Shown: positions 3,260 to 22,497, counted from the first letter of the stretch. The stretch is DNA of 64,000 nucleotides from Promethearchaeota archaeon (GCA_016839555.1 JAEOUA010000008.1:192001-256000); one strand, 5' to 3'. A program made the numbers and translations. Notes: a model not told the origin generated them from the letters alone.

Positions 3260-3565
3260 TTACAAAATATCTAAGGGATCTGGTCCTAAACTTTCTTTTA
3301 CAAACCGAAAGTAATCATCTCCATCATAATCGCATTTGTAGATACCTAAAAATTGTTCTACCGTGATATGCAATTGGGCGGCCATTCTTCCAATTAAATA
3401 ATCCTCTATTATTTTTCCATGACTCCCTCTACTCACAAAAGTTTTAAATGGAGATCTACGCCCCTTATATGCAAAATAAATATCTATATGAGGACCCCCC
3501 TCCTCGGTTTCAAAGCCTTTTCTCTTAAATTCGCTTAATAATTTATGTCTTTTTATTGTAGCCAT
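3260..3565 (-). CDS. HicA-like mRNA interferase toxin
   Basis: KRKGFE..GGPH..F..KG..TFVSRGSHGK..IGRMAAQLHIT pattern fits the HicA dsRBD-like fold; overlaps the upstream partner gene. Confidence 0.65.
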   Translation of the reverse strand: MATIKRHKLLSEFKRKGFETEEGGPHIDIYFAYKGRRSPFKTFVSRGSHGKIIEDYLIGRMAAQLHITVEQFLGIYKCDYDGDDYFRFVKESLGPDPLDIL

Positions 3566-4565
3566 CTTTAATTTCCTTCAAATCTTTTTCATTTATTAAA
3601 TTGAGCAATTTATATTTGATTTTTTGAGCTCCTTTTGTTAATAAATCATCATTAACAATAAAATACCTTATGTGAGAAATAATACAATTATATAAATCAT
3701 TATACATTTCTGAGAATGTCTTCCCTGCGGCTACAATATTTAATTCTTCATTTTTAGCAAAAAATGCATCATATTTGAATTCTAATTTTAAATTTAGAGT
3801 TCTAGTGAATCTAATCCCTCTCACATCTTCTATTGGTAATATATTTATAACATTTAACATTTCGATTTTTTCAAGTTGATTTCTTATTGGATTGTAAAGA
3901 CCTTTTACTTTTATTACTTTTTTATACATATTGAGAAAACGAGGCTCTTCTTTTTCATCATATTTATATTCTATAGAATTTCCAAAGATATCTCTTATTC
4001 TTATATAAAGATCTCGTTCTCCATGAATTATGGTTAAGGCTCCTGTAATCTGCTCAATTCTTTTTTCAATATCCATTCTTCGCCATTTATTTAGAGTTTT
4101 TCTATAATTTTTTTTAGCTTTAAAAATTCTTATCGGTTCAGAATCATGAGTTTTTTTAAGTTCGATTGCAAATGATCCTGGGTATCTTGATAAACTTTTT
4201 ATACGTTTTAAAAATGTTCTTCTTATTTCTAAATCGTTAAAATATGCTTTTGCCTCATTATAATTACTTCCATCTCTGTCTCTATCAATTAAATTACTAA
4301 TCTGAGAGAAGTTTTGCATAACTTCATCAATTGGAGAAGTTCCAAAACTAGTTGTTTGGTATTGTGGGATCATAACAAAAACTTGTGATCCTTTTTTTTG
4401 ATCTTTAATTAATAAGGTATATATTTTTTTTTTAACTTGGGGATTTTGGGCTTCTCCTAAATCATAAATGGCTTTTTGAAATTGAGAAGCAAACCTAACA
4501 AAATTATCTATTGACACACTATTTTTTCGCAATAATTTTCTATTAAATATGAAAGCTAATTCCAC
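3543..4565 (-). CDS. Large protein with C-terminal HicB-like antitoxin domain
   Basis: C-terminal FFAKNEELNIVAAGKTFSEMYNDL resembles the HicB core; 23-nt overlap with the HicA-like gene. Confidence 0.55.
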   Translation of the reverse strand: MELAFIFNRKLLRKNSVSIDNFVRFASQFQKAIYDLGEAQNPQVKKKIYTLLIKDQKKGSQVFVMIPQYQTTSFGTSPIDEVMQNFSQISNLIDRDRDGSNYNEAKAYFNDLEIRRTFLKRIKSLSRYPGSFAIELKKTHDSEPIRIFKAKKNYRKTLNKWRRMDIEKRIEQITGALTIIHGERDLYIRIRDIFGNSIEYKYDEKEEPRFLNMYKKVIKVKGLYNPIRNQLEKIEMLNVINILPIEDVRGIRFTRTLNLKLEFKYDAFFAKNEELNIVAAGKTFSEMYNDLYNCIISHIRYFIVNDDLLTKGAQKIKYKLLNLINEKDLKEIKDGYNKKT

Positions 4566-4887
4566 TTTTTTACACTTTCAAATTCTTAAATATTTCTTAA
4601 ATATTTAATAAAGACTTTATTTTTTTTACACAAAGTAATATAAAAATATCACTCTATTAACATTTATAAAAATAAATAGTGTTATAACTTTTTTCTTAAA
4701 AAATAAGACTTTATTTTTTTATAAAAACTTTACTTTATTTTCTATTTTATATCATAAAAAAACTAAGATTCTACTTATTTAATCAACTTCTATATAGCCT
4801 ATTATTCTTGTGAGATACTATAAAATTGATATCCCCATTTTCATGAATTAACTAGTTTTTCCTTTTTGTTTAAATAATTATATTTAA

Positions 4888-5058
4888 ATGAAAAACATGA
4901 CAAGTATGCTTCAATCGAATAAAAAGAGAATGTGCTGCAAATGCGAAAATTATGACAAAAAAAAGGGAATATGTAAATTATTCAATAGAAAGCTCTCTGG
5001 GGATTATTGTTGTGTTGTTGATGGGAATAAAATTTTTTTTTTTAAAAGAAAAGAATAG
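4888..5058 (+). CDS. Small Cys-rich putative metal-binding protein (56 aa, below ORF-track cutoff)
   Basis: ATG 4888 to TAG 5058; CCKC-x9-C-x11-CC spacing. Confidence 0.45.
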   Translation: MKNMTSMLQSNKKRMCCKCENYDKKKGICKLFNRKLSGDYCCVVDGNKIFFFKRKE

Positions 5059-5123
5059 CATACCGTAATGATTATTTATGCATCATTTTGATTCGCTTGT
5101 ATCAATTAGGCGGTGTTTAAAAT

Positions 5124-5336
5124 TTGGTTTTAAAAGTCTTCGAAGAATTAGCATTAGATAAGTTGAGAACTCTGCAGCCTTGTTCATTAAAAAAATGGGC
5201 CAAAGCTTTGGGTTATAAATCTTCCCAAGCATTTTATTATACGCAAAAAAAACTTCTAAAAGCAAAAAGAATCACTCGAAAAAAGAGTGGAAGAATCTAT
5301 CTTTATAGAATTCTTGAAAAAGATGAAAAGAAATAA
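5124..5336 (+). CDS. Small winged-helix DNA-binding protein
   Basis: Basic 70 aa; SLKKWAKALGY...LLKAKRITRKKSGRIYLY wHTH pattern. Confidence 0.55.
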   Translation: MVLKVFEELALDKLRTLQPCSLKKWAKALGYKSSQAFYYTQKKLLKAKRITRKKSGRIYLYRILEKDEKK

Positions 5337-7042: not shown

Positions 7043-8899
7043 ATAGTTAAATACACAGATATTCAAGAAGCAGTAGATCAATTTGAGATTCTCCGTGAAT
7101 ATAAGAGCCACATTTTTGAGGCTATTTGCGGAGCTTGGATTTCTGGGAGACCAATTAGGAGGACATTTGAAGATGTGAAAACGTTTTTAGTAAAGGATCT
7201 CGAAATGGCATATGAACTGAAAGAAATACTTAAGTTAAATTTAATTCCAGGATCGATTTACTATATATACAGTGAGAGGGCTCAATATGGTATAGGGAAG
7301 TCGCAAATAGCCTACTTTTTAAAAATCGGGTATGAAGAAAAATCCAGTAATAATTTAACTAAATTTTTGATCTTTAAAAGGCCCCCTGAAGGATATAAGG
7401 ATATAGAAGAGAAATTAAAAGCATGTTTAAAACAATGTAATAGGCAGAGACCATTCTATGTATTTATTGATGAAATCGACTTAATTATCGAACCTGACTT
7501 AAGTAATGAAGAAAAAGTTAAAAGAATTGAAAGACTTGGAAACATTCTTATCCAAATATCCGAAGAAGCAGCAACTATGGGATTACCGTTTTATATTCTT
7601 TTAATTTTTAGTTATCATATTCTAAAAATTATCGAGAATTTTCACAGTTCGAGAATTATGAGAAGATTTGAAGCTCTTTCGAGCGTGGATTATGATCTTA
7701 AGGAAGGGGATTTCAATAAAATTGCAAGGAATCTATTTGCTTTATTATGGGCAATGAATTATAGGAATATAAAGAATAAAATTGAAGATAAAGTTGATTT
7801 TTTTAGTTTAATAGGTGAAATGATAACAGATGTACTAAATAACATAGGCGAACTTGGTATTCAGATTGAGAGCTCTGTAATTGGAGCAGTAATAAACATA
7901 TACAAGATAATATATCAACTTATTTTTAAGAATGTTGATGGAGCTAATTTAAAAAAAAATAATAGGATATTAAATAATGACACAGATTTAGGCAGAGTAA
8001 TAGAAGGTATTGTTAAAGAATTTATAAAAAAAAGAATTTCTTTATTAGAATTTAAATTCGAAGAAACTATTGTCAAAGTTAAATATAATGAAAAGCAGAA
8101 AGAAATAGCGGGCTTTAAAACAGATGGATATTTTAAATTCTCAATTGGAGATAATAAGATCGGGATTATGCCCGTGGAAAGTACATGTGAAGATAAATTA
8201 GATTGGAGAAAAAAGAAACAATTGAAAGCTTTTTTGAATAATTACCCTATTTTGTTTGTTTGGATTTATCACAAGAAACAAGATGCTAAAGAACAGTTAC
8301 AAAATTTAGAAGATAAGGTAACTAAAGAGGTGTATACCATATTAATTCCACTAGATTTAGCTAAATATTCACTGCTTCTAGAGAAGAGAAGATTTAAGTT
8401 ATTAGAACATTTTAAGAGAAATCTTCCTCTTGATATCAAATCTTTTCTGCGTAAACAAGCACGTATTTTATATAACACATGGATGATGGAAAAACCGATA
8501 CCTGTCGTTATTGGAGAAAAAAAGAAGATTATAAGAAATAAGGAAATACATAATAAAGTCGAAAAATATTTAGAAAATTTATTTACTTATTTAGATGAAA
8601 AAACCAAGAGATCTCATAGTAGGATGAAAGAAATTATGGAAAAATATTTATCTTCATTAAATAAATCCTTTGATGAATATGGAATCAGTATTTCAGATTC
8701 TGATATATCAATAATATATAGAGAAATTGTAGAACAATTAAGGTCAGAAAATCTATGTCGTTTTACAGAGATTGAAGATAATAAATTTTTAATAAAAGAA
8801 GACAGTTTTAGCATAGAAAGTGCAATTGAAATTTGTGAGAAATTTATTACTGTAAGAATTGAAAATAAATGTAAAGATAAAGGCATTGGAATTAATTGA
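7043..8899 (+). CDS. P-loop ATPase with putative PD-(D/E)XK nuclease domain
   Basis: Walker A AQYGIGKS, Walker B VFIDEID, later E..TDG..PVEST REase-like pattern. The frame is open 44 codons upstream of the called GTG (7175) to an ATA at 7043 preceded by GGGGAG. Confidence 0.6.
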   Translation: MVKYTDIQEAVDQFEILREYKSHIFEAICGAWISGRPIRRTFEDVKTFLVKDLEMAYELKEILKLNLIPGSIYYIYSERAQYGIGKSQIAYFLKIGYEEKSSNNLTKFLIFKRPPEGYKDIEEKLKACLKQCNRQRPFYVFIDEIDLIIEPDLSNEEKVKRIERLGNILIQISEEAATMGLPFYILLIFSYHILKIIENFHSSRIMRRFEALSSVDYDLKEGDFNKIARNLFALLWAMNYRNIKNKIEDKVDFFSLIGEMITDVLNNIGELGIQIESSVIGAVINIYKIIYQLIFKNVDGANLKKNNRILNNDTDLGRVIEGIVKEFIKKRISLLEFKFEETIVKVKYNEKQKEIAGFKTDGYFKFSIGDNKIGIMPVESTCEDKLDWRKKKQLKAFLNNYPILFVWIYHKKQDAKEQLQNLEDKVTKEVYTILIPLDLAKYSLLLEKRRFKLLEHFKRNLPLDIKSFLRKQARILYNTWMMEKPIPVVIGEKKKIIRNKEIHNKVEKYLENLFTYLDEKTKRSHSRMKEIMEKYLSSLNKSFDEYGISISDSDISIIYREIVEQLRSENLCRFTEIEDNKFLIKEDSFSIESAIEICEKFITVRIENKCKDKGIGIN

Positions 8900-8928
8900 A
8901 TTATTATATAAGTCATTAAGTCAATTTT

Positions 8929-9427
8929 TTAATAAGTGTATAAGTGTAGCTTAAATTTCGCTCTTGAATCCCCAACATATTTATCTCTTTTTAAATATGT
9001 TGAACTCTTTTTGTTCAAGAGCAAGAAAACAATATCTCGTTCCAAACATTTGAATCCTTATATAATTTTGAATAAAATTAAAAAATCTCCGTTAATTTGC
9101 AGTCTATCCTTTAACAATGGAATATCTTTAATTTTATTGGGTTCTATGATGAAAATTCTTTTAGTTATATCTTGATCTTTCAAGTGATAAACTTTATAAT
9201 ATGAAAATTGTTGTTTATACAGATTAGGTATGATTTTTTTTAATTTTTCGTTTGAAAGAATCAAAATTTGATTATCCTTAATTTCATTGTTAAAATATTT
9301 TTTCTTGATATATGCAATAGAATGTTGGAGAGTCTTTTTATTATAAGAGATATGTTTTATGTTTACTTTTAATCCATTGATTTCAGAATAAGATGAATAT
9401 TTACCAAGATTTGTCGCATTCTTTATC
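8929..9427 (-). pseudogene. 5'-truncated paralogous copy of the C-terminus of the NERD-helicase (20656-21154)
   Basis: Translates to ILSNEKL..QQFSYYKVY..IIEPNKI..LQINGD..*GFKCLERDIVFLLLNK..SRAKFKLHLYTY*; internal TAA at 9058-9060. Confidence 0.9.
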
Positions 9428-9521
9428 TATATGTCTATTCAATCGAATGCCATGTATACCAATTATTATTTAAATTATCAAGGATGCAATTTAAACATTA
9501 GCTAAAAAATTCTATTTGTAC

Positions 9522-12374
9522 TTAAAAAAATTTCTCATCGTATTTATTAAATCGTCTTTTTATGGCAGATCTTCCTCCTTCCAATTTTAGAATGGAATCA
9601 ATACAACTCTCAAATCCTCCATATTTCTCAATCTCCCCAACTTCTCTATCTTCTTTCGGTCGGGTTTCTAAATGGTATAGGAGGTCCACATCTCCCAGTG
9701 TGGGGATATTAGGATTATGAGTTGCTACGATGATTTGTCTTTTTTGTTTCACGTCTAACAAATATTTTGAAAATTTCCTTATTGATTCTTGATCTAGCTC
9801 AGAATCCGCTTGATCTATTAGAAATGGAATTCTCTCTTCTAAAAGCATGATATATAGCAGAATAGCGCATCTTTCACCTATAGATACTTTACTTATATGA
9901 TAATGCCTGCTTAAGCCGCTCCTTCTATACGAAATCACGGGTTTTGAATCGATGTATGTTTTAAATAGTTCTATTAATGAATTATCGAATCTCTTTGGGG
10001 TATCATCATTTTTTATCAGTTCTTTTAATTTGTTTATCAAGACATGGTATTTCGACGGTATAATTTGCGATATTTGTTTTGCGTGTTTATTAATTATATC
10101 ATTTATAAGCTCAAAAGGTAAAAATTTATTGTGTATGATTTTTAATACTTCTTTTTTACCTCCTGAGTGAAATTTTTTTAACCAGTTGTAATATAGACTC
10201 TGTTTAAGATTTTTTGGTCTTGCTTTCATTCTTATTTTTGCTTTAATCTCCCATTCATTAATTCTTCTTTCAATGTTTTTTACAGCCTTTCGTCTTTTTA
10301 TCCGTATTTCAAGTGTTGTGTCAAATACTTTCTTGGCTAATTCATATAATTTTGTTTCCAGGATTCGTATATTTCTTTTAATCTTTGCAAAACTTTTTAA
10401 ATCTTCTTTCAATTCTTTCTTGATATCTTTTAGATTCAATACATCTTCTTGAAGCTTCAAAAGATACTTTATATCATACATTTCTAATATATCTTCGTAT
10501 TCCTTATTTTTTTTACCATAAAATAAATTCCATTCATTTAATAAGTCTTCATAATCTTTTTTAATTCTATTCTTTTTAATCGATAATATTTCCTTTATTT
10601 TATTTTGAAGTTGAATAATATTCTCATAAAAGTTATTAAATTTATTGATTAATTTATTGATCTCCTTTTTAAAATCCGAATTAATTGAGGAAAATGCATC
10701 AGCCTTAAAACTTAGATTTAAGTTCGATATTAATCGTTCAATCCAGTCATTTATTTTTATTTTTCTACTGTTTAATTCTGAATTAAATGAGATTAATGAT
10801 TCATATTTGTCTAAATTGAGTTTTTTCAGGATTTTTGTATGGGTTTCTTTTTTTTTTATTCTTTCGTTAATATCATAAATATTATTCTTGACCTCTTGTA
10901 GATTATCAAACTCATTATATTTCTCAGCCAATATCTTTTGCATTTTGGAGATTTCAGCAATAATATTATTCCTTTCCTTTTTTTCTGAAAAATCTTCTAT
11001 AAACTTGTCAACAATGTTTAATAGAGAACTGGTTTTTTTATGTAATCGAGGGATTTCAGTTTGACTCAAAGCTTCTATTTGTATGTTTTTTATAATTTCT
11101 TCTTGTTCTATTTCATAAAAAGTTCCTTGAGGGCTTAACTTATAAAATTCTCTTATAACATCATTTTCCCATTGTATTTCTTTAGTATCTTCTTGAATTA
11201 ATAATGTATTACTAATAGCAATAATATCATCATTGTCTTTGATAAATATTACTACTTTACCTTCATTTCCTAATTGCATCAAGATTTTGTTATTAAAGAT
11301 ATCTAAACATTCTTTATCCTCCGTAATGGACATTAATCCGAATCTTATGATATCAACAATGAATGATTTACCTGTGCCACGCCCCCCGATCAATACATTT
11401 AATTCGGGATTAAATCTAAAATATTTTTCTTTAAAGAACAATCCATTTACATAAAACCCAACTATGTATGGATTTTCGCGAACCCCGTCTAGAGCCGTTT
11501 TTACCCTTGTTTCAAAATCATATTCAATCTGTTTTAATCCTGTAATATTTTTTTCAGAAAGTTTCAAATATACGGTACCAATATTACAATACTCATATAA
11601 TGGGCAGGAAGGGCAAATTGAGTAAATTTTATCAAGAAGTGATGTATCGTGTGCATCTGAGGCTTTTATCTTTGCAAGGTTTCTAAGCTCTTCTATGTCA
11701 TGGAATTTCTGTGGTGTTTCTGTAAAGGTTTTCGGACAATTTTTATGTGGATTTAGACTTTTTGCTCCTATTGATGGTTTTCCTAAATTCCATAATCTTG
11801 TTAAAGGGCTTTTAACATATGTGATTAATGCCTCTCCTGTGACGTTTTTTGTAATTCCCTCTTCTCCTAGAGGATGAGGAAAGAATCCTATTACCTAATA
11901 ATTTGAAAAATCCTTTCTGAAATCATCTTTATTTCCCGATAAGCTTTTGTCTATTATATCCCCGTGATCTTTATTATTTTCATTAGGTTGGTCTTTCTTC
12001 CTTCCTATAGCACCTAGTAAATTACTAATATTTGATTCTGAAATATTTTGACCGTTAAAGATTATTGAAAAATGAGTATTTGATGAATCCTTCAATTCTA
12101 TACAAGGGAGAAATGTTATATCCGTATCGCGTTTTGTATTTAAGTTATTAAGAATTTCAATACCGCTTTTCAAATCCTTTAAATCCTTTTGCCTATGGAC
12201 CGTTAGACCAACGAGTTGAATTTTATGTTTTATTAGAATGTCGTATAGATCATTGCAATAATCTCCAATTGGAGTTTGTTCAGGTATCTCGAAATGTAAA
12301 TGTAAATCTGACTTATAAAATTGAGAGCCAATATGTTGCTCTATTAAATTTTTATAAACTTCTTCAATTTGCAT
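9522..12374 (-). pseudogene. PHP phosphoesterase-ABC/SMC-like ATPase fusion (TrlF/Ppl-like antiviral protein) with one in-frame TAG
   Basis: ORFs 11895-12374 and 9522-11567 share a frame, separated only by TAG at 11895-11897. PHP motifs DLHLH, FPHP, SDAH; GGRGTGKS, coiled coil, SIGER, LIDQ, VATHNPN, LEGG. Confidence 0.85.
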
Positions 12375-12849
12375 AGTGTCACTTTTGCTTTTAGATATTT
12401 TATTAAAAAGTATATTAAATATAAAAATCTAATGGTCTATTAGTCTTTTAAAATAGATTCTCTGTTTTCTATTATTCATTTCCAAAGCTAAAATTAAATA
12501 ATTTATTATTAAGAAAAATTTCCCTACTATATATATTCTTGATATTAATGTTGATTATGTATTTATTAATTAACTTAGTAGATATTTAAAAAGAAACTAA
12601 ATGTCAGATTAGCTTTATCTTGATTTTCCTATTTATTTTGTGAGATGAAAATAAGAATAGAATCGCAGTTTCCCTATATAATTATGAAAGCGTTAGAAGG
12701 AGTTGTATTGCAGATCCCTCTTTCATTATATGCGTTCATAGCTTATAATACTAAGTAACGAAAAAATGGGGAAAAAGATATATTTCTAAAGTGTGTATTA
12801 TAAGTCAAGAAAGAAATATTAGAAATAAAAATCTACTTAAAGAATAATA

Positions 12850-13821
12850 ATGATATTAACTGCCCCAAGAGACAAGACAAAAAAAAGACTTTTCGCTGTT
12901 TCGGGTAATAAATGCTATTTCCCTAACTGTAATACTCCACTAGTTGATTTAGAGAGTGGAACTGTAACTGGAGAAATTTGCCATATTAAAGGTAAAAAAC
13001 CAGATTCTCCAAGGTAAGATCCCAACCAATCTGATGAGGAAAGACACGGATTTAACAACCTTATCCTTATGTGTGGATTTCACCATAAAGTAATAGATGA
13101 TGATCCAGATTCGTACACAGTTTCTCGATTGTTGGATATAAAGAAAACTCATGAACAATCAAACATTAGGGGTAAAGAACTAAGCGATAATGCTACTAAT
13201 TTATTTATAAAAAATGTTACTGACGATTCTATAATCTTTACACAGGATCAGAAAGGAGGGCAAGTCGCACATTCAATAATTAATATTAATTATAAGAATC
13301 GAGATAATATTGATAAAGAGAATAAGGATCGTTTAAAACAAGAAATAGTCAGAACCTTTGAAGAGGGTGATCTTCGATCATTTTATGCTTCAATTTTTGA
13401 TTTTGGGTTTAAGGAAATAACTAGAATCTTACAATGGATTGTAATTGAATCGTATGATGCATATAATGACGGTGTTAATATAGTTCAATTAGTAATTGAT
13501 AAGGGTGATAGAAGAGATGAAAAAGTGGGGGATATGATATTTCACAGGGGTATTGAAAAATATGAGATTCAATTTAGTCCAACAACTTGCCAAATTTTTT
13601 TTGATGTCCGACAATTTTCATGGTTTAATAAAGAGGGTAAAATAATTTTTGCTGGCGGATGGGATAGCCAATATTATGGTAGTTTGATGATGATGTATTT
13701 TAACAACCAAACGCAAAGATATGGATGGCATTCGGTTGAAAGACCTGATATTGAAGATCGAAGTGAAGAAGCAAGGAATAATATACTCATATATTTGAAA
13801 GAAAAATTAGGTGTAAATTGA
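12850..13821 (+). pseudogene. HNH endonuclease domain plus unique C-terminal domain, interrupted by TAA
   Basis: ATG 12850 RLFAVSGNKCYFPNC..GEICHI..PR*D..NLILMCGFHHKVID; TAA at 13015-13017 replaces the Tyr seen in the paralogue (PRYD). Confidence 0.85.
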
Positions 13822-14958: not shown

Positions 14959-16449
14959 GTGGAACCATCCATAACTAAAGTTTATAAAGCGCTAAAAGAT
15001 TCTTATAAATATATTGATTACCGTTGTGCATACTTTAAAGAAGGTAATGAATGGATAAGTATAGTGTCTGCTTTTAGATTCACACGTAAAGAATATGATA
15101 AATTAAATGAGTATCACGAAAGATTAAGGAAAATAACACATAATACAGAATGGTTTAAAATTAAATTTGAAATCTTAAACATTAAAGAATGGAGAGCAAA
15201 ATGGGAAGAAACTAAGAAAGAAGTTAACTTTTTAGAAGATAATTTTGATCTCAATTCATTAGACTTATTCATAAATATGGAGTATAATTCACATCCTCCA
15301 ATAACAAAAATTGATAGAAAATTTAATACAATTCAATTTAATGTTCGCTCCGCAAGGTATGAAGAACATCAAAAAAGGCTTGAATCTTTAAAGGAAAAAA
15401 AGGAATTAAGGAGTATGGGAGTCACATCTGTATATCCAATCATTAAAAATACTTTACAAATTGATTTTAATAAAACTTCACAAATATTCTCCATTTTCCT
15501 TTTTCCAATTTATATTAAATTTAAAGATGTTAAGTATAGGGGAGATAATCTTTCAGGTGAAATTGAATATCATAAGCTTTTTTCTAACTCTAACCTTATA
15601 GTTAAACATGATTTAAGAGGGACTAACGAAGGAATTATAAAAAATCTAAGATTGGAAGAAAAAATAAATTTAGATCAAGATTATTACACTACTCAATTCG
15701 ATATTAAAATCGATAAAGAATTACATCAAATCGAAGAAAATTTTTCTCAATTCATATTTAGCATTTACTTAAGCCCTTTAAATATGGAATTAACAGACTA
15801 TAAAATATTTGCTTATGATTCAGAACGGACTCAAGAGAAAAGAATATATGAGGAAGAAATAAAAAGTGTCGAGATCCTTAAGGAATCTCAAGATTTATTC
15901 ATTAAACTAAATATTAAGGACTTTCAATTATCTGAATATGATGAACTCATCAATTTAATTAATAGATCTGCTTATAATGACAAATACTATAGAATCCTCC
16001 CAATCTTACTCAGATGCCTTTTTGAAAACCTTTTATATGATATTTTTCAAACAGGTCTTAATGTAAAGCACACTGAATTTTTCTTTCTAAAAAACCAATA
16101 TAGATCAAGGGACTTTTCTCAGTTAATCGCACTATTAAATATTTTGAAGGATAAGGATTTTAAATTATATCATAGAGATACTCTTAACCAGAATATGATA
16201 GAAACTTTAAAAGAAATCCAAAAGTTTGGTAATTGGAGTGTTCACGATATTATAAGGCAAGTAGATAGAGATTTTGCTGACAATTGCGAACAAAAAGTAA
16301 ATAGAGTGTTATTAGCACTTTTAACATTATATAAGAAACTACAAGGTAAAAATTTAGAAATAAAGGATGAAGACACACTTAATAGAATTAAAAAAACCCT
16401 TAATCTTGTCAATCTTGATGATTCATTTAAATCCAAAATTACAAGATAG
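14959..16449 (+). CDS. Protein with C-terminal HEPN/DUF4145-like helical domain; in frame with downstream SAVED-CD-NTase across a TAG
   Basis: LINLIN..ILLRCLFENLL..FSQLI..IQKFGNWSVH pattern. Confidence 0.55.
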   Translation: MEPSITKVYKALKDSYKYIDYRCAYFKEGNEWISIVSAFRFTRKEYDKLNEYHERLRKITHNTEWFKIKFEILNIKEWRAKWEETKKEVNFLEDNFDLNSLDLFINMEYNSHPPITKIDRKFNTIQFNVRSARYEEHQKRLESLKEKKELRSMGVTSVYPIIKNTLQIDFNKTSQIFSIFLFPIYIKFKDVKYRGDNLSGEIEYHKLFSNSNLIVKHDLRGTNEGIIKNLRLEEKINLDQDYYTTQFDIKIDKELHQIEENFSQFIFSIYLSPLNMELTDYKIFAYDSERTQEKRIYEEEIKSVEILKESQDLFIKLNIKDFQLSEYDELINLINRSAYNDKYYRILPILLRCLFENLLYDIFQTGLNVKHTEFFFLKNQYRSRDFSQLIALLNILKDKDFKLYHRDTLNQNMIETLKEIQKFGNWSVHDIIRQVDRDFADNCEQKVNRVLLALLTLYKKLQGKNLEIKDEDTLNRIKKTLNLVNLDDSFKSKITR

Positions 16450-17823
16450 AAGATAATAATTCAAGAGGATATTACACCTATTGATGAGAAAAGTGTAATT
16501 AAGTCTCTTCAACCTGATAAGGCAGCTGATGATGAAATAAAATTAGAGTGTAATATTCAAAAAAGTAATTGGAATAAAATAAAGACATATTTACAAAATC
16601 ACATAAATAATCTTTTTAATGAGAAGGAATATTATCAATTTGCAATATCTTCACTTGCTCGGATCTCGTGTGCCGTGTATTTGGGATATCTCCTTACAAA
16701 TCGTGTTAAAATTAGATATTCTCAATATCAAAGTGATTCACAGGTCTGGAATTGGTTAAAGGCTTTAGATAATTTAGACTTACCTAAATTACATACTTCG
16801 GGCTTGATAAAGAAAGAAAAGAGCAAGATTAACGAAATTATTATAAAAATATCTCTTTCAGCGAAAATTTTAGATGACCAAATCAACGAATTAGAATTGG
16901 ATATAAGAGATAAGATTGAAATTACTATAGATAACCCTTCGGAAGATTGGCTTAAATCAGAGAGTCAAATAGTTGATCTCGGTAAGTCATTTAGGGAAAT
17001 CCTAACCAATCTAAGGATAAATACTCCTAACTTAAATAAGATTCATTTATTCTATGCCGATCCAACTGCAGGTGCGATTGTGATAGGAAGACAAATCAAT
17101 CCTAGTATGAATCCCATAGTTCAACTCTATGAGTTTGATAGAAAAAAAGTTCCTAATTATCAAAAAATTCGAGATCAACTCGAAAAACCAACTGTTTATT
17201 ATGCAGGCTCTTTTCGAAAGAAAACTATGATTAATGTTAGTTATGATCTTGACATTATCCTATATTGGTCATCAAAGGCTTCCAGTACAATTAAAGAGTT
17301 TTATACTAAAGTTGGTATGGAGTTACAAAGGAATTGGAAAAGATTACGAGCAAAAAAAGTTGGATGGGAAATAGTTTTTAAAGGGGATTTTCATATTGAT
17401 GTAATATCAGGTAAAAGAAAGCATAAGAGTTATCGGGAAGCTTATTTATATAATCGAGAGATTGATGGAAAGTTTCTAACAAGCATAAATAAGCAAGTGA
17501 ATTATATAAAACGCCGTCGGCGAGGTGATGTTATCAAATTAATCAAACTATGGAAAAAAAGAAAATAAGTTCCTATTAAAACTTTTATATTAGAACTAAT
17601 GGTTGTTCGAGGGTGTAAAGATTTGCCTCGTAAAGAACTTGAACCTCAATTAGGAGGAGCACTTAAATATATATCAGATAATATTACTAAAATTAGACTT
17701 GAAGACCCAGCTAATCCTCAAAATATTATTTCAGACGATCTAACGAAGGAGGAAAAGAATCGTATTAGAAACCTTGCAAATCAAGCTTTAAATGCTAAAA
17801 ATTGGAATCAAGTGTTTTTTTAA
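16450..17823 (+). pseudogene. SAVED sensor domain fused in frame to a cGAS/DncV-like nucleotidyltransferase (CD-NTase), internal TAA
   Basis: SAVED: LAR..VYLGYLL..W.W..KISLSA..IHLFYA.PT...IGRQIN...VQLYEF. NTase: YAGS, YDLDI, HIDV, RLEDPANPQN. TAA at 17566-17568 is in frame with 17599-17823. Confidence 0.85.
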
Positions 17824-17879
17824 TTACTAGAAAAGTTGCGATGCAACCCCTTTTATTACTTTCTTAATTATGCAAAAGG

Positions 17880-20655: not shown

Positions 20656-22497
20656 TTAGTATGTATAAAGATGTAGTTTAAATTTTGCTCTTGAACCTCC
20701 AATATATTTATCTCTCTTTAAATCTACTGATGTGTTTTTATTTAACAATAAGAAAACGATATCTCGTTCCAAACCTTTAAACCCTTGTATTGTTTTAAAG
20801 AGAGTCAAATAGTCTCCATTAATTTGTAGTCTCTTTCTTAATAAGGGGAGCTCCCTAATTTTATTGGGTTCTATGATGATAATCCTATTTACTGTACCTT
20901 GATCTTTCAGATAATAAACTTTATAGTACGAAAACTGTTGTCTGTATGCATTAGGTAAAATTTTATTCAATTTTTCATTTGAAAGAATTAAAATTTGGTC
21001 ATCCTTAATTCCATTATTCAAATATTTTTTCTTAATATATGCAATTGAATAGTGAAGAGCTTTTTTTCCAGAAGAGAAATGTTTTGCGCTCACTTTTAAT
21101 CCATTAATTTCAGAATAAGAAGAATAATTACCCAAATGTGTAGCATTTTTTATCCATTTTCCTATTTCAACCGTATTTCTGAGATTTTTATCTAATACAA
21201 TTAAATCTTGATCAGGGTTCATTCCAAATTGCGTTGAAATAAATTTATTAGTAAAAAGATTTTGAGATTCATCAAAAAAGATATATAGTATTGATTTTTT
21301 CTGATTTTTGAGCATTCTTCTAATAAGTGATGCAAGATCCGGATGAATATCCTGGGCTTCATCTATTAAAATTGCATCATAAATTTGTATTTCTGAAATA
21401 TCATCGAGGTTTTCGTTTAAAATATTTGCACTTTTTTCGAATTGAAAATTATTATTAAAGAAATATAATTGCTGCAAATCTTTCCCCCCTAGTAATGCTT
21501 TAGCAAGAATTTTTATAAGACTATGCAAAGTTAATATCGATATTTTTGTGGCCAATTTATCTGAATCAATATTTAATTTTTCGCATAGATACGATTCAAT
21601 TGAATCTCTCAATTCTTTATTAAAGCATAAAAAGAGAGTTTTTTTATCTTCTTTATATAATTGTATAGCTTTTTTCATTGCTATAAAAGTTTTTCCCGAA
21701 CCCGCGCTTCCTTTGAACATGCAATGCTTTTTCTGAGAGAGGGATGTTAACAAATAATCTTGAACTTGATTTAACTTTTCTAACTGTTGTTCTCTGATTT
21801 CATAGTAATGTTTTATATTTACATAAGTATTTATAGAAGGTGTGATAAGTTTTAAGAAAAAGGGTTTTATATTGGGATTAAAAACTCGATTGTTATAGAC
21901 CTCTAATAACGAAATTAAATAGTCTTCAAGTGGAGAAGGACCTATTTTCCCTATTCGTTTCCAATTATTTTCATCCTCTAAATCAGAGTAATCAAAAATT
22001 TTTGAAGGGGGTAAAGAGAGGGAAAAATCGTCTTTTATTTGGCAATCGGGAAAGAAGCACCCACAATTATAAGAAAGTGGAAAATCTAATCGCCCATTAA
22101 CATTTTTTAATAAATGGTTTTTATCAGCATTCTGGGAAGCTTTATTGATATATAAGTCTTTAATAAAATACATTGATTTCTGAGCTTGCCGTAATGGATT
22201 TGCTTTAAGCTGATGTTTTCTATTTGAAAGTAGTTCCCTTGAGTGATAACGATTATTTTCGAAAGTGATTAAGCCACCTTTTGCCTCGATTATCAAGAAG
22301 CCATAATTCGCATTAAAAATAAGAAAATCTGCCTCTCCGTGCTCTTTTCTTAAATCGCTTGCCCATTCGATTGAGTGCCATGCATACCAATCATTACTTA
22401 AATCATCCAACAAGGTATAAAATTTGATTTCTGATCTTGGTAGGTTTTTACTTCGTTGTTGTAATTCTTGTAATGTTTCTGGATATTTATGTACCAT
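20656..22497 (-). CDS. NERD nuclease domain-SF1 (UvrD-like/DUF2075) helicase
   Basis: GEADFLI..LIIEAKGG (NERD); GSAGSGKT, ILIDEAQD, DESQ, NLRNT, FKGLE, SRAK helicase motifs. Confidence 0.9.
   Translation of the reverse strand: MVHKYPETLQELQQRSKNLPRSEIKFYTLLDDLSNDWYAWHSIEWASDLRKEHGEADFLIFNANYGFLIIEAKGGLITFENNRYHSRELLSNRKHQLKANPLRQAQKSMYFIKDLYINKASQNADKNHLLKNVNGRLDFPLSYNCGCFFPDCQIKDDFSLSLPPSKIFDYSDLEDENNWKRIGKIGPSPLEDYLISLLEVYNNRVFNPNIKPFFLKLITPSINTYVNIKHYYEIREQQLEKLNQVQDYLLTSLSQKKHCMFKGSAGSGKTFIAMKKAIQLYKEDKKTLFLCFNKELRDSIESYLCEKLNIDSDKLATKISILTLHSLIKILAKALLGGKDLQQLYFFNNNFQFEKSANILNENLDDISEIQIYDAILIDEAQDIHPDLASLIRRMLKNQKKSILYIFFDESQNLFTNKFISTQFGMNPDQDLIVLDKNLRNTVEIGKWIKNATHLGNYSSYSEINGLKVSAKHFSSGKKALHYSIAYIKKKYLNNGIKDDQILILSNEKLNKILPNAYRQQFSYYKVYYLKDQGTVNRIIIIEPNKIRELPLLRKRLQINGDYLTLFKTIQGFKGLERDIVFLLLNKNTSVDLKRDKYIGGSRAKFKLHLYTY

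Follow-up and report, generated by a model that had tools for sequence, protein, structure and literature searches.

Positions 14959–17823 (+) of the window, by which is meant the whole 64,000-nucleotide stretch of DNA that was analysed, form a single frame of 955 codons that holds the remnants of two genes. The host belongs to the Asgard archaea, as had been proposed from the sequence, and within them to the Loki group (Promethearchaeia); the name of one homologue refers to Ca. Lokiarchaeota. The locus contains the following features:

14959–17166 (+): effector gene remnant, with an N-terminal module, a HEPN-fold domain and SAVED; ancestral length about 745 aa
14959–15792 (+): N-terminal module, an alpha/beta domain (residues ~1–185) followed by an Ig-like beta-sandwich (~186–278)
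15910–16344 (+): HEPN-fold domain, DUF4145/c2405-like, from structural matches and sub-threshold DUF4145 matches
16447–16449 (+): nonsense change TGG>TAG; TGG (Trp) in relatives
16450–17166 (+): SAVED, untranslated past the TAG (Pfam SAVED, NF033611); its last short segment is deleted
17162–17184 (+): junction scar, from DNA alignments to the related loci L071, L242 and L161; blastn breakpoints at 17167 and 17182
17167–17823 (+): CD-NTase gene remnant (PDLC00803); the intact gene encodes about 254 aa
17566–17568 (+): nonsense change GAA>TAA; GAA in L242, L071 and L079

Translation through both stops showed that the TAG and the TAA are the only internal stops, and no frameshift was found in the 2.9 kb of the frame. 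An earlier reading made from the sequence alone (the sequence-only reading) had described one 955-codon frame with two stops that encodes a HEPN-like domain, SAVED and a CD-NTase, and both the frame and the domain calls hold, the latter through structural matches, Pfam and PADLOC. The codons 3′ of the TAG do encode the start of SAVED, as was claimed: the match to the PADLOC SAVED-HNH profile begins at residue 4 and that to Pfam SAVED at residue 57 (E 2e-34), and NCBIfam NF033611 also matches. SAVED also reads into the CD-NTase without a stop; the PADLOC cyclase profile PDLC00803 matches the read-through sequence with an E of 1.7e-58, aligning to the frame only from profile position 31 of 253. 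The cyclase motifs GS (17206), DxD (17245–17253), third Asp (17398) and DPxNxxN are present.

Both stops replace sense codons that are retained in relatives. The TAG, where the SAVED region begins, is TGG in L241, L071 and L073, and Trp occupies this position in all five other aligned orthologues. The TAA lies inside the cyclase. In L242, which has 87% DNA identity to the window, the codon is GAA and the 36-nt context is otherwise identical; GAA is also found in L071 and L079. Single-lesion genes in a metagenome-assembled genome invite suspicion, and it could be argued that the stops and the junction between the two genes are assembly errors, or that the stops are read through. However, the lesions recur without a difference in contigs from three samples and cannot be put down to assembly. 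Run X1, possibly the source sample, has a contig over 15712–18511 with 0 differences. A contig of X2 (17239–17861) spans the TAA and is identical to the window, as are two contigs of X3, one that spans the TAG (16395–16627) and one that spans the junction (17044–17208). The latter is the sole independent contig over the junction and reaches only 27 nt past the second breakpoint. X1, X2 and X3 are marine-sediment samples from one study, and the comparison was made with contigs rather than reads. Recoding of the stops is rejected because two different stop codons replace different residues, Trp and Glu, and even with read-through the deleted helices of the cyclase would stay missing. An error of assembly or a read-through frame is thus extremely improbable.

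Why does a single frame run through both genes? At all 19 of the 19 related loci the SAVED frame is closed by a stop and the CD-NTase is encoded separately, in a different frame. The spacing between effector and cyclase in relatives is −17 to +7 nt; in L071 (effector 8001–10244, cyclase 10247–11011), for example, the effector stop is followed 2 nt on by the start of the 254-aa cyclase. Between the last SAVED motif and GS lie 205–217 nt in the 19 related loci vs 78 nt in the window. Alignment to relatives with 82–87% DNA identity resolves the difference into two deletions. The first removed about 115–116 nt and has its breakpoint in the A-run at 17162–17167, and the second removed 15 nt near 17181/17182. 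A 15-nt piece of a cyclase helix is retained between them, and about 131 nt are missing altogether. The deletions took the effector's last 6–9 codons and stop, which are the end of SAVED, and the start of the cyclase, of which residues 1–29 and about 5 residues near 35–39 are gone. Some 13 residues now separate the SAVED end from GS, near the figure of about 11 given earlier. The piece between the deletions (17168–17184) is itself an inverted repeat, perfect over 6 bp around a loop of 5 nt, which is not perfect in relatives; it may be due to chance or may have guided the deletions.

The model of the intact orthologue cyclase (pLDDT 93) has helices at residues 3–13 and 18–35, and it aligns from residue 1 to the N-terminus of the solved CdnD, CdnB and DncV structures. 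The window cyclase lacks helix 3–13 and most of helix 18–35. Among 61 cyclases, 6 of the 44 columns conserved in ≥90% fall in the deleted part, and 53 of the 61 lack at most two conserved columns. Changes at conserved sites are also found outside the deletions. Pro116, invariant in 61 of 61 cyclases, is Ser in the window, and the conserved SAVED motif AGP, present by pattern match in 12 of 14 relatives, is ADP (17059–17061). The caveat attached to the sequence-only reading, that the fusion might be an in-frame deletion scar in a dying operon that has lost the N-terminal helix of the cyclase, is borne out by the mapped deletions.

Very probably the locus is what remains of a type I CBASS operon of two genes, now pseudogenised and run together by deletions. 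The ancestor had a first gene for an effector of ~745 aa, with the N-terminal module, HEPN and SAVED, and a second, separate gene for a ~254-aa CD-NTase in another frame, 1–7 nt downstream or overlapping. By chance the two deletions left effector and cyclase remnants in frame, and besides the two nonsense changes the operon took a change at each of two conserved sites. Some observations count against a scar. Both deletions kept the frame open, which has a chance of about 1 in 9, in a region that was picked out precisely for its open frame, and the 2.9 kb are free of frameshifts. The excess of amino-acid change on the window branch of the cyclase (dN/dS ~0.26–0.46) excludes zero in only 1 of 3 triplets; branch dN/dS by triplets is too noisy for dating the decay.

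The main proposal of the sequence-only reading was an ancestral single chain that joined cyclase, sensor and RNase, and this is not supported. A true, working HEPN-SAVED-CD-NTase protein that was later silenced by the two stops could explain the frame that is open across both deletions and the GS, DxD and third Asp that the cyclase keeps despite its lesions. Rare cyclase-effector fusions are, moreover, already known forms of CBASS according to PMC13276650, which cites Millman 2020. However, the fusion is found in no homologue. None of 180 cyclase loci (151 distinct cyclases at 95% identity, 163 of the loci with SAVED nearby) has SAVED and cyclase in one ORF, and among 251 domain-bearing proteins the sole one with both is that of the window. 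A search for longer fused cyclases (446–2000 aa) gave 1190 candidates with none significant, which is weak evidence by the search's own caveat. From an evolved fusion one would expect two whole domains and an added linker, whereas the junction lacks helices that all full-length relatives keep and the end of SAVED is trimmed. The frame has no complete cyclase, carries two stops and shows a fusion that is not conserved. A working single chain is highly improbable, and no real all-in-one protein underlies the frame; type I CBASS with a new effector variant is represented here by a dead copy. As to the arrangement that had been set against the single chain, with HEPN-like protein, SAVED effector and cyclase all encoded apart, the cyclase gene is indeed separate and full length in every related locus, but the HEPN-like and SAVED domains form one protein in relatives. 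Long frames 5′ of the cyclases in L099, L180, L189, L192 and L232 were also considered; they overlap the neighbouring SAVED gene but in a different frame, and do not represent fusions. In the wider family, cyclases are fused C-terminally to AGS_C in L120 (4989–6254) and L233 (4980–6407), and L120 has an adjoining second CD-NTase. These fusions keep a complete cyclase, whereas the join in the window truncates both domains and is without an intact counterpart.

It is almost certain that the ancestor belonged to type I CBASS. A CD-NTase of the Pol-beta fold with GS, DxD and third Asp lies beside a co-oriented SAVED effector, and no PADLOC match to Cap2/Cap3 or HORMA/Trip13 was found in the ORFs that flank the window locus or in seven neighbours of related loci. 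The copy in the window genome is not intact, with two stops and two deletions, and its CBASS cannot signal. No second SAVED or cyclase of the same family was found in the genome, which is 92% complete. Pfam SMODS matches nothing in the genome, not even the window remnant, and therefore is no test of absence. The cyclase had been called OAS-like, but the best of its listed structural matches are bacterial. The fold of the intact orthologue matches CdnD and CdnB with Z of 24 and CdnC with 21 (rmsd 2.6–4.0). The top-50 structural matches listed are CD-NTases, cGAS, CCA-adding enzyme and NF90/NF45; OAS is not among these 50, and this absence is not exclusion. The closest solved structures include clade C/D trinucleotide synthases. 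The likeness to CdnD (P. aeruginosa, 6p82), CdnB (B. fragilis, 7ljo) and CdnC (E. coli MS115-1, 6p80) extends over the whole length of the fold and includes GS/DxD/D, but the identity is only 15–21%, the intact orthologue is more compact (254 aa) and cyclases of this family score below the NCBIfam equivalog cut-offs. In several other Asgard loci (L034 6596–9431, L035, L036, L037, L163, L166 and L169) 2–3 CD-NTase paralogues lie around one SAVED effector. The effectors are HNH-SAVED where checked, and the CD-NTases are often transcribed divergently to the effector.

Among the known systems closest to the operon is the type I CBASS of Cap5 (HNH-SAVED). Both have two genes, a CD-NTase and an effector with a C-terminal SAVED domain, the PDLC00803 cyclase family usually lies beside HNH-SAVED, and the window SAVED nests among those domains. 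Unlike Cap5, the effector gives no HNH match and has a HEPN-fold and a variable N-terminal module instead, and the window copy is dead. HEPN-fold and SAVED are joined in 14 database proteins. Since intact relatives carry both domains on one chain, this fusion is genuine and the TAG is a nonsense change within it. P0009 of L071 (747 aa) is intact and collinear with the window over 740 aa at 62% identity. Another intact effector is P0045 (742 aa), and the genome G160 has HEPN-like and SAVED domains in one 561-aa ORF. Intact HEPN-SAVED lies directly before an intact CD-NTase of ~254 aa at 8 loci (L071, L072, L074, L079, L080, L241, L244 and L245), the 5′ part of the effector being missing in L241. 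A tree of 46 SAVED domains places the HEPN-linked ones together with two others, one of which (L170) is HNH-SAVED, in a single clade (support 98/97), and this clade sits inside a set dominated by HNH-SAVED effectors. The tree points to an origin of HEPN-SAVED by domain swap in a bacterial-type CBASS, in which the HEPN-fold apparently replaced HNH in a Cap5-like system. The tree is midpoint-rooted, so the direction from HNH to HEPN is a parsimony reading.

The N-terminal module of the effector is interchangeable, as other HEPN-SAVED proteins carry a different N-terminus of ~130 aa or ~290 aa. In the AlphaFold model of orthologue residues 1–495 an alpha/beta domain is followed by an Ig-like sandwich and then by a helical domain. 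The structural matches of the beta-sandwich reach a Z of only 5–6, the N-terminal module has no Pfam or PADLOC match, and Foldseek with the 495-aa model gave Ig-like and noise matches only, among them iota-toxin rows with a meaningless TM of ~0.1. Matches in an Atlas search were below thresholds. The module may be a general sensor or targeting module. It also begins proteins of ~1330 aa (L044 1483-, L046), and AlbA_2 or PLD domains occur in Atlas look-alikes, which are weak (TM ~0.4–0.45). For the part of the effector outside SAVED there is no PADLOC or NCBIfam model, and a metagenome scan with P0001 alone gave no match.

The top structural matches of the HEPN-fold domain are nearly all HEPN, with Z of 7–9.7, rmsd of 3.0–3.8 and 114–134 aligned residues; such Z values are middling for helical domains, and the ranking is consistent. 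DUF4145 (PF13643) gives sub-threshold matches in 16 of 27 members, with 13.3 bits vs a cut-off of 23.1 and a best family E of 0.009. An alignment of the domain gave no match to the sequences of solved structures. The domain is under purifying selection (dN/dS 0.09–0.18), and its conserved residues are R352-x3-E356-N357 and Q421-x2-G-N-x3-H429, the His codon being 16243–16245. The Arg of the Rx4-6H motif is absent from the window protein and from 13 of the 14 SAVED-linked proteins; Gly takes the canonical place, and one turn upstream lies Gln. A complex prediction for the HEPN homodimer scored 0.21, which gives no verdict and carries no weight as evidence. Among described families the closest is the DUF4145-like/c2405 HEPN (PMC3710099), which shares the HEPN fold, the conserved His and the upstream acidic motif. 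In c2405 the His is kept and the Arg lost, and the domain is fused to AbiTii (PMC3710099). P0040, a close homologue of the window protein, is likewise fused to AbiTii, but the window protein gives no AbiTii match. The window HEPN differs further in its fusion to SAVED in a CBASS operon; in the table of PMC3710099 the rows for DUF4145 and c2405 list no such fusion.

How the intact system might act can be outlined from established CBASS and Cap5 behaviour. Upon virus infection the CD-NTase would make a cyclic oligonucleotide. SAVED would bind it and oligomerise, on the model of Cap5, which is activated by ligand-driven oligomerisation (PMC12804361). The HEPN domains would thereby be brought together, and a composite site would cut RNA and lead to arrest or death of the cell. 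The chance that intact relatives (e.g. L071, L079 and L244) represent an undescribed CBASS, in which the signal of the CD-NTase switches on a HEPN-SAVED ribonuclease, is put at about even. The predicted RNase step has itself an even chance and is rated no higher because the motif Arg is mostly replaced. If it does cut RNA, HEPN-SAVED is possibly a ribonuclease with a non-canonical active site that dispenses with this Arg. No description of HEPN-SAVED or SAVED-HEPN proteins was found in the literature covered, which is without Burroughs 2015, Makarova 2020 and Millman 2020, and the word undescribed is provisional.

It is conceivable, if somewhat less probable, that HEPN in the intact system is a binding or oligomerising module and not an RNase, toxicity residing elsewhere, e.g. 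in the N-terminal module. The motif Arg is Gln in 13 of the 14 SAVED-linked database proteins, P0060 alone keeping Arg, while distant family members mostly have Arg (58 of 82) or Lys (21). Among the loci with an intact pair, L080 is one with the motif Arg. KEN and PrrC depend on the Arg for their activity (PMC3710099). However, the His, the upstream RxxxE-N and the GN are essentially invariant over ~170 sequences, and HEPN is the sole domain common to all HEPN-SAVED proteins, whose N-termini differ. The copy that keeps Arg also speaks against a purely binding role, and for families that have the His without the Arg, activity via another basic residue is listed as a possibility (PMC3710099).

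The part of the window effector 5′ of the TAG is an ORF of 496 aa, and it could be that this N-module/HEPN protein still works alone, free of cyclic-nucleotide control, while SAVED and the cyclase decay. The TAG sits at a domain boundary, and natural proteins of 500–520 aa with the N-module and HEPN but no SAVED exist (L045, L060 and P0083). The HEPN domain of the window keeps all invariant residues, with a window-branch dN/dS of ~0.11–0.18. On the other hand, private amino-acid changes have accumulated, 17 in the N-module vs 5 and 8 in the closest relatives and 10 in HEPN vs 1–7, and the gene starts with GTG where relatives have Met. Two stops equate to a neutral divergence of only about 1%, too little for dN/dS to tell. 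Survival of the ORF by itself is considered unlikely. The same HEPN domain is widespread in family f1, where 27 of 134 genomes match the 496-aa query (L045, L047–L060, P0013–P0043, P0046–P0097). In Loki-group genomes this module has been shuffled onto many unnamed N- and C-terminal domains, and once onto AbiTii. The family-f1 HEPN fusions without a PADLOC model are candidate stand-alone defence genes.

CBASS in Asgard archaea is already known (PMC12988326; bioRxiv 10.64898/2026.02.13.705702), and the targets of CBASS effectors given in reviews are DNA, membranes, NAD+, ATP and proteins. If HEPN-SAVED cuts RNA it would be a new effector class for CBASS, and the intact HEPN-SAVED family is a useful by-product of the dead window locus. 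Part of the same evenly weighted reading is that this candidate RNA-cutting CBASS of Asgard archaea would follow the logic of OAS-RNase L and Csm6 but be built independently. Csm6/Csx1 of type III CRISPR (CARF-HEPN) also fuse a sensor of cyclic oligonucleotides to HEPN (PMC9704534). They differ in that the window protein has SAVED rather than CARF, the reversed domain order, a signal from a CD-NTase rather than Cas10 and another HEPN family. [quoted passage not shown] The likeness is analogy only, as the sensor and the HEPN family are both different. The locus is also a warning: where the genes of an operon are tightly packed, a deletion scar can join them in frame and pass for a multidomain fusion.

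The locus lies in a decaying defence island, and the decay is island-wide. A PHP-ATPase gene (9522–12374, −) has one in-frame stop, TAG 11895–11897, and an HNH gene (~12844–13821, +) has one in-frame stop, TAA 13015–13017; both are otherwise open. A promoter scan gave results at chance level. Related SAVED/cyclase operons are often broken too, each independently, by frameshift in L032, L073 and L195 and by a stop in L161, L215 and L226. In L033 of G160 a resolvase plus TnpB/Cas12f-like element (3294–5170), IS607-like by architecture, lies directly after a truncated cyclase. The frequent loss of the operon would fit a costly suicide system. Elsewhere in the window, a 68-codon fragment at 9058–9264 (−) closely resembles the C-terminal part of the NERD/helicase ORF at 20656–22497, ~11.5 kb away, and is a diverged partial duplicate.
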